Assembly: GCA_951406725.2 (NCBI GenBank)
Contig: OX597825.1
Location: forward strand, 50,592,001 to 50,656,000
Length of the DNA stretch: 64,000 bases
Source: Octopus vulgaris
Taxonomy: Eukaryota
Direction: 5' to 3'
This document shows positions 1,352-63,174 of the stretch, piece by piece. The position numbers and the translations under genes were made by a program. The stretch's first letter is position 1. Each line of letters begins with the position of its first letter. A model generated the notes under the pieces. It was not told where the DNA came from. It ran no database searches and was given only the letters and a program-made list of their open reading frames with translations.

Positions 1352-2774
1352 TCATATGTTGTGGTGTATGTTAGTGCTCCATTCTAGTTTTCTATTCAGG
1401 CTAGGTTTATTTTCTATTATGTGTGTAGCTTCTGTAATTTGTCTAATTGTTGCATCTGATCTATGTGTGGATAATATTTTAATTTCTATGTTATTGATTG
1501 ATCCCCCGTGTTCTTGTTTGGTGTGTTGGTACAGAATCGATGAGCTTTTACCTTCCTTGTGTTGTCTCCAATGCTCATTTACCTGCTCTCCTATGCTTCT
1601 TGCCGTTTCCCCTACGTATGTCGTTGTCTTGTTACTGCATCGTCCCTCTATACATCTTATACTATAGACTACATTTCTGGCTTTACAGTTTGTTTGAGGG
1701 CTAAATCTACATACAGTACAGTACTTATCCGTACAGGGGTTCTACTAAAAGGATAGGTTCTACCAATTATAGATTTGATAGGGTTGCCTGACTTTTCAAC
1801 AACCTTAATTCTTAGCTTAAGTTTGTCTAGGGTCCTTCTAAAGCGATATGCCAGTTCACCTCCAGGGATGGTGTCAACGAACATGACACTCTGGTATTTA
1901 TGGCTATCATACCAAGAGTTGGCCTTCCCTATTTTCTTTTTTGTCCTTTCTATAGTGTTCCATGACTTGTTCCTATAGAGTGGGCAAATACCATTCCTAT
2001 CATTACATAATATATAATCAATTTTTTTAATGGCTCCTTTGTATACTCTGATCCTTTCTTTATGGCTGTAACCTGAGAACTGCATGTGGTGAATGAAATA
2101 TTGTATGTGTCTCTTTAACTCTGTGGGCTCGCACATGCATGACACATTTCTCATTATTCTGACGAGGTCTGCCATCAAAATATTGAATTTGGCATTGTCC
2201 GCAATGGCTGAGTTCCAGTGGATCAAGTATTTTGAGGCCATAGGTTTGGCATAGTATGAATGAAGGATTTGTGTTTTATTATTCACAATTTCTAGCCAGA
2301 GTTCAGTGTCTAGTACTGGTAGTCTATGGTTGGGGTGTTTAGTGGGGTAGTCTATTGTGACCTTAATACTCTGGTGGATGGAGTTAGCTATTTGCTGGAT
2401 GCTCTCCATAGTATTAGTTTCTATTACTATATCAACATTACTCTCTTGTGGGGGTGCCTTTACCACTATGTTGATATCATCAACATAGCGAGAGTACATG
2501 TTTACAAGTATGGAGTTCTGTGTTAGGCGTTCTTTAAGCCTTCTGTCCCACCATACCATGAAAAGATTGGCCACATCACCAGTGATACTAACGCCGATGG
2601 CTGCCCCCTCGTCCTGGGCATATATTTTATTATTAAACTTAAACGTGTGACCTTTTAGGGTAATTCTTATACTAGCTCCTAGTGCATGTGCGATCATTTT
2701 CTTTATCTGATGGACATTTGCGGAGCTCCGTATGGCTCTGGTCCATCCGCGCCATCTTTCTATATGTGTCTTCC
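1352..2774 (-). pseudogene. Penelope-like RT-thumb-GIY-YIG polyprotein, N-terminally truncated, one frameshift near 1737
   Basis: ORF 1669-2811 has RT motifs QDEGAAIG, YSRYVDD, LPVLD and YAKPM. After the frameshift it reads CTDKYCTVC...CKARNVVYSIRC...TYVGETARS...EH...H...H...EATHI...LNRKLEW (GIY-YIG with Cys/His motifs), stop at 1352-1354. Confidence 0.9.
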
Positions 2775-3118
2775 TACAAATTACATGAACATATATAAAC
2801 AGAAGATACAAATATTACAGGCATCCTCTACATACACACACTAAATAAACATAAACGCACATAGAGATATAAGCATGCGCAAATGAAGACATACAATAGA
2901 AATACAAAATGGCTGATGGTTAGTAAGGAGAGACACAAATAAGTAAGAAGAAAACAAAGGACCACTGATGTGGTCCCAGGAGTGTGATGAAAGAACTCTG
3001 GCCAAAATAAGATTAAGATTAATGTAAAAAATAAATAACACTGAAGCAAAGTAACACCAAATATATAGTGCGTGTGTTTTTATTGGCTAAACTGGCAAAA
3101 TGACCATTCCTAAATACA
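2775..3118. repeat. Pseudo-LTR arm 2, inverted, fused at the 5' truncation point of the RT
   Basis: Reverse complement of 675-1018. Confidence 0.95.
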
Positions 3119-9469: not shown

Positions 9470-12461
9470 ATGGTGAGTGTAAGAATAGATTCTTTAAATG
9501 TTCGTGGTCTATGGTTGCCCTGGAAGCAAGGTCGCTTGCTCAATGATCTCAGGTCAATAGCTATTAGTGAAACTGGGATTTCTGTCAGTGAAACTGGGCT
9601 GTGAGTAAAACTGGCTATCAGTGAAACTGGGATTTCTGACACATGCATTCTTGGAAGATTTTGAGATCTATACCTCTCTTAGTCAACTTGAATGAAAGGT
9701 GAGATAGCAATGCTGTACTTGAGGTATGGATGATCTTCATGGGCCCAGGTGGTACGTTGGTGGCTCTGAATGTAAGCAATAGTGAAGGTGGTGCTTTTAG
9801 ATTAGTTGCTGGGGTGGGGTAACCAGATTTCTTTCAATTTGGGGATTTTCCTTGGGACATCTTGCACTTTAGTTCTAGTGGGTGATTGGAATGCCATTTT
9901 GAATACATGCTTGGATAAGGTGGGGCTAGTCGATAGAAGGTGGGTGTAAAAACCTCACACACCTGTTCAGTCACTTTCAAGTGGCTGACAGGTACCAGTT
10001 AGATTTCCCAAATGCACCAATGTAGACATGGGTAAAATGAATTGGGTCTTCCAGATCGTATCGAGATAGAGTATTTTGGAGGCTGGCAGATTGAAGTAGC
10101 ATGAATTGTTCACAATTCAAAGTCACCGGTTACACAGTCCACAAATTTGTGATCTGTTTGGTGAACACCGATAGAATCCATAGGCAAGGCTTCATATACT
10201 GGAAGCTGAATACATTTTTCTAGGTGCTTGAAGCATTCATAGATCAGACTAGCAAGTCAAGAACCAATGGTGGATTGTATTGAAAAGGGCTATTAGAACA
10301 AAGGTGGTAGGGTTTAGTAAAGAAATAGTGTTAGAAGAATCTAGGGCAGAGAGACACCTAGTTAGGAAGTGAGAGGGGCACTAAGAAGTGGTATAGTGAC
10401 TGACATACTGGCAGTGAGATTGGCTCTTGATCAATTATCTAATACCAAGCATGAAGGTTGCATTGTCAGAGCTAGGTTGCATGTACTTAAGACACAAGGG
10501 GACAAGAGCTGTTTGATGTGCCTGGGTGGTAGAAGTGCAACGTTGCAACAAAACTACAATTCAGTCTTTGACAGGCCAAGACAGGAGCATGCTGCTTGAA
10601 TCCAAGCAGATGTGCGTGGAATTTCAGTAGTACTTTACCCAACTGTAAGGAGCACGCTATGGGGCAGAGCTGGAGGTTGACTTCACCTACCTTGATGGCA
10701 TGCCATGACTTTCAGTCAGGGATGCAGAATTCTGCAAAATGGTGATAACAACAGCAGACATACAAGACACAATGACGTGCTGCACAAAGGAGAAGTCTCT
10801 AGGACTGGATAGTCTGCCCTTCAAGCTTTATTTACAAATGCCACACTTGCTTGAGTATCTCTTGTCTACTGTTACTGGCTGCAGAACAAGAGTGTTCTCA
10901 GTGCTGTTACCCATGGCAGAGTGATGCTGTTGAGAAATAGCTTGAACAAAGGAGACCAAATAGACAATTTTAGTCCCATAACTCTACTGAACACAGATTA
11001 TAAGATTCTGGCCAAGGTGTTAGCCAAGAAGTCGGTGTTTGTTGTCTATAAGCTTGTTGGTGACATGCAGGCATGTACTTTCTAAAACAGATCTGTCCAA
11101 GACAACCTACACCTAACATGCTACAGTATAGAGAGGGTAGGTAAAGAACCTAGCATAGGTGGGGTCTCATCAATTTGGATAAACCAAAACCGTTTGATAG
11201 GGTCAACTACCTATACATGGAGGCTGTCTTCACAGCTGCCAGTTTCAGTCCTGGTTTCAGAGGCTAGATTGCTGTAATGTACAATGACATCTGTTCAGTG
11301 GTCAAAGTATTGTCCCTTTTTTTCCCTTCAGAATCGTTTAATATTGCATGTTCAGTCTGTCAAGGATGCTCGCTCTCACCTTTTCTGTATGTGCTGGCTC
11401 TCAAGCCATTTTTAAGGTAATTAGATATTTTGAGGGGCATCCAGAGTGTACTAGGATGCAGAAGATTTGTGTCAGCTTACGTGGATGACGTCACTGTAAT
11501 AGTGTTAGGCATCTCAGAAATCAAGGTGGTTGGCAGTACATTAAAGGAGTATGAAGATTAGCATTAAGGGAGCAAAGATTAGCTTGGATAAGTCAGTGGA
11601 CCTGCAGCTCAGCACATGAGTAGGCAGGTCCATGTGTCCAACAGCTTCATAGGGTGCCAGATGTAAGCATTGTTTGGGGTCTAGTTTAGTCTGGACCTCC
11701 AGGTGGACAAGAACTGGGGGGCAGTGATGAGTAGTGTGGCAAGTCACAACCAGAAACGGGCAAGAAGGAAGCTGTCTCTAAAAGGTTGGGAAGAGGTGGT
11801 GAATGCATACATTGCTTCTGTCATCCACTACTGACTGATCCTTGTCTTTTGCCCATCTTTGAGGCTGATCTAGCTTGAGCACTTGCTCTTCCATTTTTCC
11901 TGGAAGGGAAGTGTTAGACAGACTATCTGCTGCCAGGAGCCACTGGGTAGAGGACTGGAAATGCCATGCTTAATGATGTGCAGACATGCACTGAGGCTAG
12001 CAAGCAGGTGTGGTCACCGTTTGTCAGAGAGGATTTTTCCTCAGCTCATCTAATTGATGGAGCCACAGTCCTCAGTTAAGCCTACATCAACTTCTTCAAG
12101 TTCTACTTGAAAAGGAAAGTGAGGGAGGAGAGGGAAGTATTGCCTCTCAGTGTTATTGAAAAGTGGATGAATGTGGTGAGGATGGCCCTTGTGAATGGGC
12201 CTACTTTGAATACGGAGAAGTTGAGAAGGAGAGAGGCACCTGCTGAGGTGCCTTTGGTGGTCAGGGTAAACAGAATATGTGGGGTTCTTTGGTTGTCCCT
12301 GGGAGGAACTCCTCACTTTTGGGGAATTCGATTGTTGAATTTTTGTTGTTTATTGTTCTTGTTTTATTTTATACATGAATTTTTGTGCTAAGCCTCACTT
12401 GTCCCTTGTGTTGTATTGTCCCTTTTTGTTTTGTGTTTGACCCTTGTGGCCAATAAAGAAA
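9470..12461 (+). mobile_element. Decayed L1/Tx1-clade LINE ORF2 (APE + RT) with 3' UTR
   Basis: In order: MVSVRIDSLNVRGL, LVGDWNAI, WKLN, KSLGLDSLP, PITLLNTDYKILAKVLA, FDRV, QGCSLSP, AYVDDV; many stops; ends CCCTTGTGGCCAATAAAGAAA. Confidence 0.85.
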
Positions 12462-29300: not shown

Positions 29301-32300
29301 CCAGGTTGGTGTCTGGCGGGGTTGAGCCTGTGTCATGCTTAAGAAGGCGACTCAATAAAACCACCGATGGTTGTGCCAGCTCAACACGAACATTCTCAGG
29401 AGTGAAATTTTCAAATACAAAGATATGAAATAATGAATTGAACGAGACTAGCACGAAAAACTGTGTACAGGAGTGTAGGTGTGGACTCTCGGAGTCTTGA
29501 CTAGTAACCCACCTAGAGATGGTGTCACGATAAAAATACTGGTGGTTGCACAACCTTACAAATGCTACATCTAAACGAATGATGTCAAAATTAAATAATA
29601 ACCACAACTGCGCGGACGGAACTGTTAGCAATGAAGGTGTCGCGCACGCAGGCAAGGAGTATCTGATCAAGCTCCGGCAGGTCGTCATTTGATCAGGACC
29701 AAAATTGCAGTCAAAAGTGCAAAAGAAAAAGATGTAAACAAAATAGTAATAGACTGCTGGCTGTGAAGTGAGCCAAATAAAAGGTGATTCATGAATCGAA
29801 TGAAGAGAAAATGGCTTGAAAAAGGAGGTTTTGAGGCATCTGCGCGGTGACTGATACATCAAGCAAGAGTAATCCGTAGGAATGACTGGATTACGGGTGT
29901 AGAGATTGAAGAAAGCCAGAGAAATATAATAAAAAAAGAACAGCAGTAGCAGAAAGCAGAAATAAAGGGGTAAGAAATGAAGAGCATGAAACAGATGGAA
30001 ACCGCAGAGTACCAGAGAATACTGATAAAGTAGCTAATGAAGGCGATCTAGATGGACAAGTGACAGTAAGTATTGCACAAGATTTGAATGATGAAGAGGA
30101 GATTTTAGAAATGTTGTAAAGTAAAATATCTGTTGGGAACAACGAAGTACCACCAAATTTAATACATATGGACAGGAAACAAGTGAGGAAAGCCACAGGC
30201 AAAGTAAAAGACGTTTTAAGCTTGATTAAAACAGAAAACATGAGTGAAACAAACTAGTTAATCATAGTTGCTGCTAATATCGTAGCTAACATAGTAGGCT
30301 ATAAGCGAAAAACTGAAGATATAAAAGCAAATGGAAAGAGAGAACCAAACTGGAGGAAGAGAATACTCTTCCACCAGTTTGGTTCTTTCTTTTCATTTCT
30401 GTTTTCTGCTACTGCTGTTTCACTCTCCTTCTGTCTTCTGGAGAAGACACTGAAAGAACTGGAGCAATTGAATTGGACAATGAGAGGAGAGCTCAAGAAT
30501 AAGGTAGTAATCGGTAATTTGAGTGGACAGTACAGGTTAGAAGAAAGGGGAAATCAAACGGTATATGAAGAACTGAAACAAAAGGTGACAGCATTAAAGA
30601 CCAAATTGAAAGATATGATGCTAGATGCAAAAGGTTCGAACAGAACAGACTGTTCCAATCAAATAGAAAGCGTTTATTCGAAGAAAGAGAAGGAAGCCAA
30701 CACCAGGAAGTGAGTCCACATGCGGAAGAGTAGCGAACAAAGGTGGAAAGACAACTTGCAAATATACCAAAACAAAAGGATGTTAGAATTAATCTATAGT
30801 GTGACAGAAGTTTAAAAAATAGCAAATTGGCTGAAGAACTTTGCACAGTTGCATGAAAAGATCATTGCGGAACTGGATGACTGCCTACAGCAAGGTCACG
30901 TCCCTGCCTGGATAACAAGTGTTGGACGAACGCTTTTATTCCTCAAAGATCCCTTGAAAAGGAATTTAGCATCAAATTTTCTACCTACAACCTGTTTACC
31001 ACTAATTTGGAAGCTGATGACCTGTGTCATAAGTTATACAACCATCTGGAAAATAACAGAAAACAAAGTAGGGTAACAAAAGATCATTTATTAATTGATG
31101 AAATGATAATTAGAAATTGCAGACGCAGATTGACGGAACTGAATGTAGCAAGGCTAGATTACAAAAAAGCATCTGACATGATACCACACAGGTGAATAAG
31201 TAAAACAATAAGCATGTTTGGAATAGCAAAAAAATACGGAGAAAATGCTTAATGAAAGTATGAAACATTGGAATACTAAATTGATCGGAGGAAAATAAAA
31301 ACTCGGAAAAGTGAACATTAGACATGGAATATTCCAAGGTGACTGCTTATATCCATTACTATTCGTATTGGTCATGACACTGTTCACTATGATGCTACGA
31401 AAAGTTAAAATTGCTTACGATTTGGGAAAAGGAAATGGTCAGATAAATCATCTTTTCATGGATGATGTAAAGGTTTATGTAAAAAATGAGAAACAGCTTA
31501 AAAGTTTTGCACATACTATCCGCCTTTTCTCAAATGATATAGATATGGAATTTGGGATAGAAAAGTGCGCTATATTGTAAATGAAACGAGGAAGAATTGA
31601 AACAAGCCAGGGAACTGAAACGCCGAATGGACAAACAATGAAAGCAGTTGAGAAAGGACATGGGTATAAATACTTGGGAATACTGGAAGCAGATGAAATA
31701 AAAAGGAAAAAAATGAAACAAATTACCAGTACGGACTACACATGGAGAGTCAGAAAATTACTGCAGTCAAAGCTGAATTCCAAAACTCTTACTGAAGCAA
31801 TAAATTCAAGAGCAGTATCCTTAATCAGATTTAGAGCTGGAATTATAGAGTGGACCAGAAACGATATAAAGAAACTTGACAGAAAAACTAGGAAGTTGTT
31901 GACAATGTATGGAGCCCACCATCCAAATGCTGATATCAATTGGCTGTACTTCAGGAGAGACCAGTGTGGAAGAGGCTTAATCGTAGCAGAAGAATGTGTA
32001 CTGATGGAAAGAAAAGTCTAGTTGAGTGTTTACAGAGCAGCACAGAAAATCTATCAAAGACAGTTAACAAAGAACAAGTGATGAAATACGTAATAAGAGA
32101 AAAGGACAAGAATGAAATACAAAAGAGAACACGTCAGACAGATTGAAGAAAAATCTCTGCTTATCCAATTTTGAAGAGCCACTGAAGACGTGTGTGGAAA
32201 AAAATCCTTGGCTTAGTTAAGAAAAAAGAGCAATTAAAAAAAGAAACAGATAGCCTACTTGTAGCAGCCTAAATTCAAGCGATAAAAACAAACAACTCGA

Positions 32301-46654: not shown

Positions 46655-46800
46655 TCTCAGAGCTTCCAGTAGGAGAATGATTGAGCCACCTCAAGCGATG
46701 ATGAGCCTCCTCTGTTCGCCTGTCTACGGGAGGGTATTACGTTCAGGGTCGAAACACCCGATGATCGTTGGATAATCTCTGATGACATCAGTTTCTCCTC
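46655..46800 (+). mobile_element. HERO-like retrotransposon 3' end fragment
   Basis: Same GAAACACCC...CTGATGA 3'-UTR architecture as 47474-47590. Confidence 0.45.
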
Positions 46801-47473
46801 GTCAAAGCTCCAGTCACTTTGGTGACTGGAAAATAAGCACCTTCTTCTAGGTGTTATCGATAACACACACACATACATGCATGCATGTGTGTGTGTTTAA
46901 GTATATATGTAATTGTATTAAACAGTATAAGTTGGTTATTATTTCATTACTTTACAGTTTCTCTCACATAATTCCAGGAATGACTAGTTCAAGAAGAGAA
47001 CACTCTACATGTATAGATTATATACGTGCATATACATGCATGTGTATATTTGTGGGTACCTGTATGTGTTTATATATGTTTAAGTGTGTGCGTGTCAGTT
47101 TTGTGGGTCAATATAAATGGCTTGAATTAAATATGAAACTTGCAACGAAGCTTATATTCATATGTTTAAATATTGTTTAATAAAGATAGTTTTATCCTCC
47201 ATGTGACCATTGACACTTCCCTTGGTTAACCCATATGGCTGTCAGCATCCAAAGTAGGAAAAATAATCGACTATCCATTATTTTTACATTTGTTAAAGCC
47301 ATCGTCAGGATTCGCTTACTTAGTACTCAGCTCATGACACCTATAATAATAGTTGACCATATACACGGCAGTAGTTTATTTAACAATGTGACTTGTTTAT
47401 TTACACAATAAATATAGTAGTTTATTATATAATATGTCAGTTTAGTCTGAAGATACATCTTGCGGATACTATT

Positions 47474-47536
47474 GAATACATCTTCAGTAATGTTTCTGAG
47501 GTCCCAGGGGTTTCGGTGGTTTCAACATCAGACCTT
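47474..47536 (-). ncRNA. Rearranged hammerhead motif in the HERO-like 3' UTR
   Basis: G-GUC^UGAUGUU ... GAAA-CC ... AACAUUA-CUGAAGA: intact core, 7-bp stem I, 3-bp stem III, weak stem II. Confidence 0.6.
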
Positions 47537-48620
47537 CGCCCAGTTGACCAGTCAGCGTTGACAAAGTCCAGCTTGCATCCAGTAAAAATAAATCACTGAC
47601 CCACCCTTTTTGCCCAAAGCCACTTCGTAGCCTTCTTTGCATCTTCAGTGATGAAATTAATAGCCCCAATTTTTGCTACGCCAGTAATTACAAACTAAGT
47701 TCATTGCTGAATGAACGCCCAACAAAGCCTCGACAACTCACTTCTGTCACCTCGCAACATGCCTGCCAGCACCGTGTTCTGCACTGCTTTACGAGCTCCT
47801 GATATTTGGTATCTCTCTCTCTCTCTCACAAGTTTCTTCCATGTCTTCTTTCGAGGGCATAATCAGTTTTCATATGATTGTTCGTTCGGTGGAACTTTAG
47901 CAGATCACCATGTCTAGGTGAAGATTTATTGATACAATGTGACTTGGGAAATTTAACCGTTGCACAAGATCTCCTCTCAGTTGACAGTCTGGTGCTATGG
48001 TAAATAGGTATAATGATCGTTGAAACTTCAATGAATACAAGGCCTGACTAGTTCAGTAAGAGAACACTTTACATGTATGGAGTATATACATACATGCATG
48101 TATTTGTGGGTGCATGGGTGTGTTTATATGTGTTTAAGTGGGTGAGTGCCAGCACCGTTTTCTGCATTGCTCTACGAGCTCCTAGTATTTGGCAAGTCCA
48201 TTTCATGAGTTTCTTCCATATGTGTATGATGAATAGGACTTCTCTTTAGCTCTGAGAAAAGTGATGATGATGGTACATATTGGACTGAATGACTTTTCTG
48301 TTGATATCCCCTCTGCAATTGTAATGAGCACCTGGTCATACCACCGGTGGTAGCAACCATCAGTTAAGGCCCTGAGGCAGCTGTTGAGATGTTGAAGAGC
48401 TCTTCTTTCAATACACAAAGGATAAGACGGTGTTTCTCTCCTGTTCCATGTGCGAAAATTTGGGGTCTTGGTAATGTGTTATATTATAGACAACCTGGAT
48501 TAGCAGTCTGACACGTTAGTGTCAGCACCCAACAGACATCTAACCAAATAATATCCCGCTGTTGTATATTGGTTCATACATATGACTGTAGCATGTTATA
48601 CAATTACAACAGTTAATTCT
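47474..48620 (-). mobile_element. Decayed, rearranged HERO-like (RLE) retrotransposon 3' part
   Basis: LCIERRALQHLNSCLRALTDGCYHRWYDQVL (CCHC plus RHD-like motif) and C-terminal KATKWLWAKR; internal duplication 47764/48147. Confidence 0.65.
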
Positions 48621-62682: not shown

Positions 62683-62803
62683 TATATATATATAAATGGA
62701 ACAAAACGCAATTATAACGTTCAGACAGATAGACGATACAAAGCCGGACAAGAGAAACAGCAATTAGAAGGACAGGCAAAAGAAAAAAAAACGGGTCATT
62801 CTT

Positions 62804-62868
62804 GACTTTCTTTCGTCAGTCAAGTCCCAGAAGTCACGACCATTCCGGGTCGTGACACTTGAGATGGT
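62804..62868 (-). ncRNA. Rearranged hammerhead motif in a non-coding repeat (~62695-63110)
   Basis: ACCA-UC^UCAAGU ... GGAA-UGGU ... ACUUGA-CUGACGA: perfect 6-bp stem I and 5-bp stem III. Confidence 0.55.
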
Positions 62869-63174
62869 TCGATCTGGTTACCCCCAAAAAGTCTAAGCTA
62901 AGAGCATTAGACCCCTTGTAAGAAAGCTAGTGAATGTGTACGGCAACAAAGACAAACAAAAAACGGAGAACAGGGTACACAATTACGAATACAAACAACA
63001 AGAAATAACAACAGTTGTCTTTCGAGTGAGAACGAATCAAATTGAGCTGATGTGTATGAAGTGAAAGCCTAAAGACAGGAACATATATACATTAAATGTG
63101 ACACATACATGGCTGTTATAATTTAACACAGTTGCAATATCCTGCTCAGGATTTGTAGCAATTCATATATATTT

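Follow-up and report, generated by a model that had tools for sequence, protein, structure and literature searches.

A broken retroelement in the genome of Octopus vulgaris carries, beyond its coding remnant, letters that read like the catalytic core of a hammerhead ribozyme, and the locus raises two questions: whether these letters belong to a genuine hammerhead, and what such an RNA would do at the 3' end of a LINE. The stretch analysed (hereafter the window) comprises 64,000 nt of contig OX597825.1 (assembly GCA_951406725.2, positions 50,592,001 to 50,656,000). A sequence-only reading had described in it a 63-nt rearranged hammerhead with an intact core, about 55 nt after the ORF stop of a HERO-like element, and had proposed for it either self-processing of the 3' end or recognition by the reverse transcriptase (RT).

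Results

Motif copies in the octopus window

The core letters were found on the minus strand where they had been claimed, namely GUC at 47533–47531, UGAUGUU at 47530–47524, GAAA at 47514–47511, AACAUUA at 47494–47488 and CUGAAGA at 47487–47481, and the claimed stem I of 7 bp was likewise confirmed, one of its pairs being G.U. These letters are not a product of chance, since the box pattern matched once in the window and in 0 of 100 shuffles, and since a stricter descriptor, requiring stems I and III in addition to the core, matched once in the 64-kb window and at none of the 23 loci, chance matches by letter, that a pattern scan of viral contigs returned, none of which had the stems. The extent and the stem set of the earlier description need revision: the true fold covers about 110 nt and six helices, no stem II had been named, and stem III amounts to only three pairs, followed by two A.C mismatches.

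Read 5' to 3' along the minus strand, the fold begins with the 5' strand of helix A (47574..47581), which makes eight pairs (-7.5 kcal/mol in the window copy) with the strand directly after CUGAAGA, that is, directly after A9 (47473..47480). Hairpin H (47550..47573), weak in this copy, lies between helix A and the 5' strand of helix B (47547..47549), which we read as stem II and which has three pairs here against five in intact relatives; its G47549 is G10.1, the partner of C11.1. There follow the 5' strand of helix X (47539..47543, five pairs), by comparison the equivalent of the stem I–II interaction helix of type-SGC ribozymes; the stem III strand with the GUC triplet (47531..47534), the predicted cut falling between 47531 and 47530; and the 5' strand of stem I (47524..47530). 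The segment 47509..47517 holds the 3' strand of stem II (47517–47515), the GAAA box and the stem III partner (47511–47509), and is followed by the 3' strand of helix X (47496..47500) and by the segment 47481..47494, in which the 3' strand of stem I (47494–47488) runs into the CUGAAGA box. The element tail occupies 47447..47472, and likeness to relatives stops near 47450.

Folded as a single sequence, the window copy did no better than shuffles (z 0.0 to 0.8), and its tail can pair back onto the CUGAAGA box (13 pairs, -10.6 kcal/mol). As a conserved off-switch this hairpin was rejected; it is present in 6 of 22 representatives, like shuffled tails. The window stretch is present whole in three DNA-type sequencing runs, in which other copies are mostly less than 90% alike, so the HERO-type family looks old in its octopus host; one contig of a putative RNA run covers 47527–47692 and is uninformative on cleavage. 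Given three pairs each in helices B and III, the weak hairpin H, the copy-specific hairpin hiding CUGAAGA and this divergence among copies, the window copy, its intact core notwithstanding, is decayed and probably inactive.

The covariance model described below found two further copies in the window, both with different stem sequences: a more decayed one at 46690..46804 on the plus strand (E 4e-8) and a third at 62802..62930 on the minus strand (E 4e-6). In the latter, helices A, X and III and stem I are complementary by eye and the GAAA box reads GGAA. No ORF remnant was detected by tblastn beside either copy, and candidate readings are insertions truncated to a very short length, or non-autonomous elements carrying a HERO-type tail. 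Rfam gave no match at gathering score in the window, where only chance snoRNA matches were returned.

The host element

Upstream of the motif lies the broken 3' part of a HERO-type LINE ORF of the restriction-like endonuclease (RLE) class, comprising the zinc-knuckle region and the endonuclease (47596..48460, minus strand) and holding stops, frameshifts and a local duplication (48147–48192 repeats 47764–47809 by self-blast). Residues 894–1115 of the intact ORF of relative L043 matched this remnant in tblastn with E values of 5e-16 and 2e-11, and a 45-aa piece of the remnant found 43 homologues; the homologues carry the Pfam domains RVT_1 and zf-RVT. A quick tree, without labelled HERO or outgroup rows, grouped the closest family with the Danio rerio RT BAC82600.1. 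We take BAC82600.1 to be HERODr, and we write HERO-type throughout, a label given by architecture and by this accession link and not by a labelled tree. Intact relatives (L030 and L043) have a single ORF with RT, a CX2CX8HX4C-type knuckle and a PD-(D/E)xK endonuclease, of which the window retains only the broken C-terminal part. Passages on the HERO clade of R2-group LINEs describe a single ORF with RT followed by a CCHC knuckle and a PD..D endonuclease, and no fixed target (PMC3636483, PMC2790886); the flanks beyond the tail vary among our family members (judged by eye), a fixed target site being absent, as stated for HERO. The passage in PMC2790886 also states that HERO lacks a Cys-His motif upstream of the RT, whereas a CxC..H motif is present close to the N terminus of L043 and of L030.

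The stop that had been placed about 55 nt before the motif turned out not to be the end of the ORF. The TGA at 47595–47593 aligns with a Trp that is invariant in ten proteins (alignment A3), and relatives read through this position; most likely, then, the TGA arose by decay. In the family closest to the window copy the ORF stop falls within hairpin H of the motif itself, as it does at 25 of 46 related loci, drawn from 6 of 14 families; at 15 of the 46 the called stop precedes strand A, at distances of up to some 520 nt, a few of these being misframed calls.

Some further features of the elements and the window deserve mention. A subgroup of the RLE LINE proteins (P0065, P0067, P0068, P0071, P0073 and P0076) contains a NADAR domain (PF08719), which in P0068 spans residues 1109–1263 (E 3e-33), in the C-terminal region near the endonuclease. 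The motif-bearing part of the remnant is flanked on either side by the copies of a 129-nt local duplication (46970–47098 and 48034–48152, 79% alike). Other RT remnants in the window, at 1669–2814 (minus), 10757–11549 (plus) and 31082–31607 (plus), are not of HERO type and were recognized by a weak RVT_1 match and weak tblastn matches.

Distribution among relatives

Conservation across HERO copies had been offered as a check on the motif, and it was found. Loci were fetched by protein alone, to avoid selecting for the RNA, and among the best 80 of 127 metagenome stretches encoding a relative the motif was present at 65, by descriptor or by a covariance model built from 21 motif copies. A perfect core with stems I and III occurred within 1200 nt of the RLE match at 46 of the 80 by descriptor; these 46 are thus selected for the core and for stems I and III, and the 21 copies behind the covariance model were of the same kind. 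Elsewhere the descriptor matched only three times in 620 kb, counting both strands, and two of the three are 5' copies of the motif. Among the 15 loci with no motif call, seven contigs end within 200 nt, five are broken or truncated copies and three are distant rows (L098, L102 and L105), in which the motif was absent from the 322–1405 nt examined. Motif-bearing rows are scattered over the entire endonuclease-domain tree (a quick tree). Rfam gave no match at gathering score in sets of 15 and 14 related loci, and a single sub-threshold Hammerhead_3 match, of 21.9 bits, was seen in L097.

Protein scans of viral contigs found no relative, and a search of plasmids gave no match. Prokaryote genomes yielded only two tiny contigs in marine bacterial assemblies (L024, 507 nt, and L025, 353 nt); these encode a eukaryotic LINE endonuclease, stop at the ORF and are probably contamination.

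Core letters and fold

In 64 model-aligned copies, C3, U4, G5, A6, G8, A9, A13, A14, A15.1 and U16.1 are kept in 61–63, G10.1 in 60 and G12 in 58, while any of the four letters occurs at N7; at position 17 A, U and C are seen, and G in 0 of 63. Changes of G12 to A and of C11.1 to T would fit CpG decay. The hammerhead features CUGANGA, GAAA and NUH with H not G are all in place, and stems I and III flank the cut site, with covariation across the families. What departs from a hammerhead is the three-way junction: stem II is not continuous with CUGANGA, and its equivalent, including G10.1–C11.1, is supplied by strand B from upstream. The description as a rearranged hammerhead core is supported, and this core is conserved across the HERO-type clade; the fold is no simple S-G-C permutation.

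The strands follow one another in the order A - H - B - X - III - NUH^ - I - B' - GAAA - III' - X' - I' - CUGANGA - A'. All six helices (A, H, B, X, III and I) covary in an alignment of 21 copies that MAFFT built from the letters without structure: 93.5% of cells are paired, against 33–40% in slid controls, and in 27 of 31 pairs both partners vary. RNAalifold, unaided, identifies four of these helices, A, H, X and III, which are nested. Helix B reaches at least five pairs in 14 of 14 families, compared with 16% of cross-family swaps, and begins with G in every family; helix X is 85.6% paired and covaries. Nothing separates A from H or H from B in 19 of 22 representatives picked by hand, with positions chosen by best pairing.

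The strand before GAAA thus pairs with the upstream strand B, and the strand after CUGANGA with strand A. We infer that B is stem II with the usual G10.1–C11.1 pair and that, because its 5' strand comes from upstream, the chain is broken between A9 and G10.1. Helices A and H may close this break as a four-way junction, with the core stacked on B and A on H, though the opposite stacking is conceivable and would disrupt the core. Helix X would do the job of the contact between stems I and II, as the interaction helix does in type SGC.

The block order S, G, C of the type-SGC hammerheads is present, but the motif is not of that type, since no pairing joins the strand that follows CUGANGA to the one that precedes GAAA. 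A direct stem II between these strands is 41% paired, with 0 of 21 copies paired at the first position, equal to shuffles in a control that treats related copies as independent; allowing a 1-nt bulge raises pairing to 56%, with covariation at shuffle level, and five pairs are reached in 0 of 14 families. The motif is predicted to work like the SGC and CSG types, yet it falls outside SGC membership.

Position of the motif within the element

Self-processing of the 3' end, as the sequence-only reading had it, is not borne out by the genomic copies, whose 3' ends lie at family-specific positions about 35–165 nt past CUGANGA and which keep both sides of the cut site. Since the element ends that far beyond the core, cutting does not make the 3' end or the start of the cDNA.

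Nine loci (L029, L047, L050, L053, L054, L058, L071, L097 and L103) run from the motif and its tail into a 5' UTR, and none of the nine runs from the tail into the middle of an ORF, in a sample biased by locus anchoring. All three elements that could be traced to their own 5' UTR (L030, L043 and L048) carry another motif upstream of it; in one case, contig L030, the sequence starts 1 nt past the predicted cut, and the 5' copies of L043 and L048 reach upstream of the predicted cut site. L071 is a partial tandem with unique flanks, at which a target duplication of at least 7 nt was not found; its two copies, 96% alike, resemble other family members at least as closely as they resemble each other, so an origin from a single template is neither supported nor contradicted. 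The tandems of L050 and L058 are not simple assembly loops, because their overlapping ends differ by 7–10%.

The start of the 5' UTR is itself conserved across distant families (L043 113–230 and L071 6416–6540, and also L054, L053, L050, L047, L029, L030 and L048), with a CCAGTGAC word followed by several short GGAAAGAC/GGAATAG/GGAGAGAC-like repeats, and is possibly a promoter or an RNA structure. A distant lineage (L097 at 2120–2690, L103 and L095) has a conserved 3' UTR of 570 nt before the motif, in which L097 shows a weak, sub-threshold SRP-like stretch (2345–2422).

Discussion

From the conservation, pairing and arrangement observed among the relatives, we consider it probable, on balance, that the motif is a new hammerhead wiring whose intact family form cuts multimeric or read-through RNA after NUH into unit lengths. 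Our wider working hypothesis, put forward tentatively and with less assurance, is that HERO-type LINEs across animals and other eukaryotes use an active split-core hammerhead to make self-ligating, circular, unit-length RNA that is reverse-transcribed past one unit, amounting to a Penelope- or viroid-like cycle in an R2-group LINE. On this hypothesis, cleavage at one motif and again at the next would free a monomer with its two ends still held together by helices A, B, X and III, and this pairing would favour either closure into a circle by ligation or a bridged nick. Reverse transcription would then start internally, at the family's tail, and overrun one unit, which would give rise to head-to-tail and terminally redundant copies. 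Since genomic copies keep both sides of the cut site, the template for reverse transcription must be uncut, religated or bridged, and this is an extra assumption of the cutting model.

The main rival to cutting is the other option of the sequence-only reading, recognition by the RT, which we regard as unlikely, if deserving of serious attention. A catalytically silent fold derived from a hammerhead would serve as a docking site for the element's RT, and tandems would arise by template jumping or by insertion of the element into its own tail. LINE RTs bind at the 3' end of their element, where the motif sits; the cDNA spans the cut site, and the link between A9 and G10.1 is broken. A precedent comes from a Penelope element, whose hammerhead, according to a section of PMC11167929, was dispensable for insertion in vitro, with no reads ending at the cut. 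Docking does not, however, predict an exact catalytic pattern across families whose motifs are only about 50% alike, with G never at position 17, N7 free, G10.1–C11.1 and A15.1–U16.1 fixed and G8 and G12 kept, nor that helix B, seemingly in conflict with the hammerhead, should provide, in register, the stem II that is otherwise missing. A ribozyme fold retained to dock a protein would also be unusual.

It is also conceivable, and to our minds improbable, that the ribozyme cuts as a regulator: a ribosome finishing the ORF would unwind A and H and keep the ribozyme off, and only untranslated RNA would be cut and lost. Where the stop codon lies in hairpin H, at the 25 loci from six families, strand A must be translated, as this reading supposes; yet at the 15 loci with an earlier stop call the fold is unchanged, and the 5' motif copies are left unexplained. 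That an ordinary type-SGC hammerhead, its stem II formed by the strand after CUGANGA, trims the 3' end is scarcely credible, for although the block order fits and 44 of 64 copies have, at the second base past A9, a G that could pair with C11.1, covariation already contradicts it and the element ends beyond the motif.

Hammerheads with additional helices were reportedly described by Weinberg in 2015. In the literature covered, the motif is unreported in HERO or RLE LINEs, and the break between A9 and G10.1 is without precedent. The HERO passages of PMC3636483 and PMC2790886 mention neither a 3' ribozyme nor terminal redundancy. The motif resides in a mobile element found in many eukaryotic genomes, and it escapes the standard Rfam models; should it prove to cut, it would offer an RNA cycle open to testing in a LINE clade that is of interest for inserting genes.

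Among retroelements, R2 shares the RLE layout. As described in PMC6765202, HDV-like ribozymes of R2 and L1Tc are self-cleaving RNAs that free the LINE from its co-transcript; these lie in the 5' UTR, whereas the HERO-type motif has a hammerhead core and lies at the 3' end and also upstream of the next 5' UTR. Penelope-like elements carry hammerheads in their pseudo-LTRs, and a hammerhead-made circular intermediate has been proposed for them (PMC4209133). According to the relevant sections of PMC4209133 and PMC11167929, they share with the HERO-type elements a hammerhead in the terminal repeat of an autonomous retroelement, head-to-tail and partial tandems, an internal start of reverse transcription and the circular intermediate, which is a proposal in both. 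They differ in their GIY-YIG endonuclease class, as against RLE, and in having minimal type I motifs thought to act as dimers, in contrast to the large, monomeric, pseudoknotted fold seen here. The plus-strand hammerhead of chrysanthemum chlorotic mottle viroid is said in a passage of PMC3705267 to tolerate an extra base between A9 and G10.1; the insertion is at the same point of the core, but it is one base rather than a break of the chain with two helices.

The nearest relatives in wiring are the non-circularly permuted hammerheads of types SGC and CSG (Eckert, Friedrich, Weinberg & Weinberg, 2023; PMC10085705). As far as the parts of that paper drawn on here go, these share with our motif the order of cleavage site, GAAA and CUGANGA, a short linker from stem I to stem II, the full core, and an extra helix that links stems I and II at their distal ends, set off by 1 nt from a five-pair stem II; the validated SGC-1 likewise has a five-pair stem II, 1 nt and then the I–II helix, and carries an extra U between A9 and G10.1 (oligonucleotide table). 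In the same account CUGANGA and its adjacent paired strands are assumed to be uninterruptible, as block C, and type SGC is found only in metatranscriptomes, with none in the genomes of known organisms. Unlike type SGC, the HERO-type motif draws the 5' strand of stem II from upstream of the cleavage site and so breaks block C, has two extra helices (A and H), closes all three inter-block linkers and has its ends inside block C. The published count of six hammerhead permutations assumes unsplittable blocks, and the HERO-type motif splits one of them, with strong covariation; if it does cut, it would represent a new hammerhead architecture and, in the literature searched, the first chromosomal member of the non-circular class.
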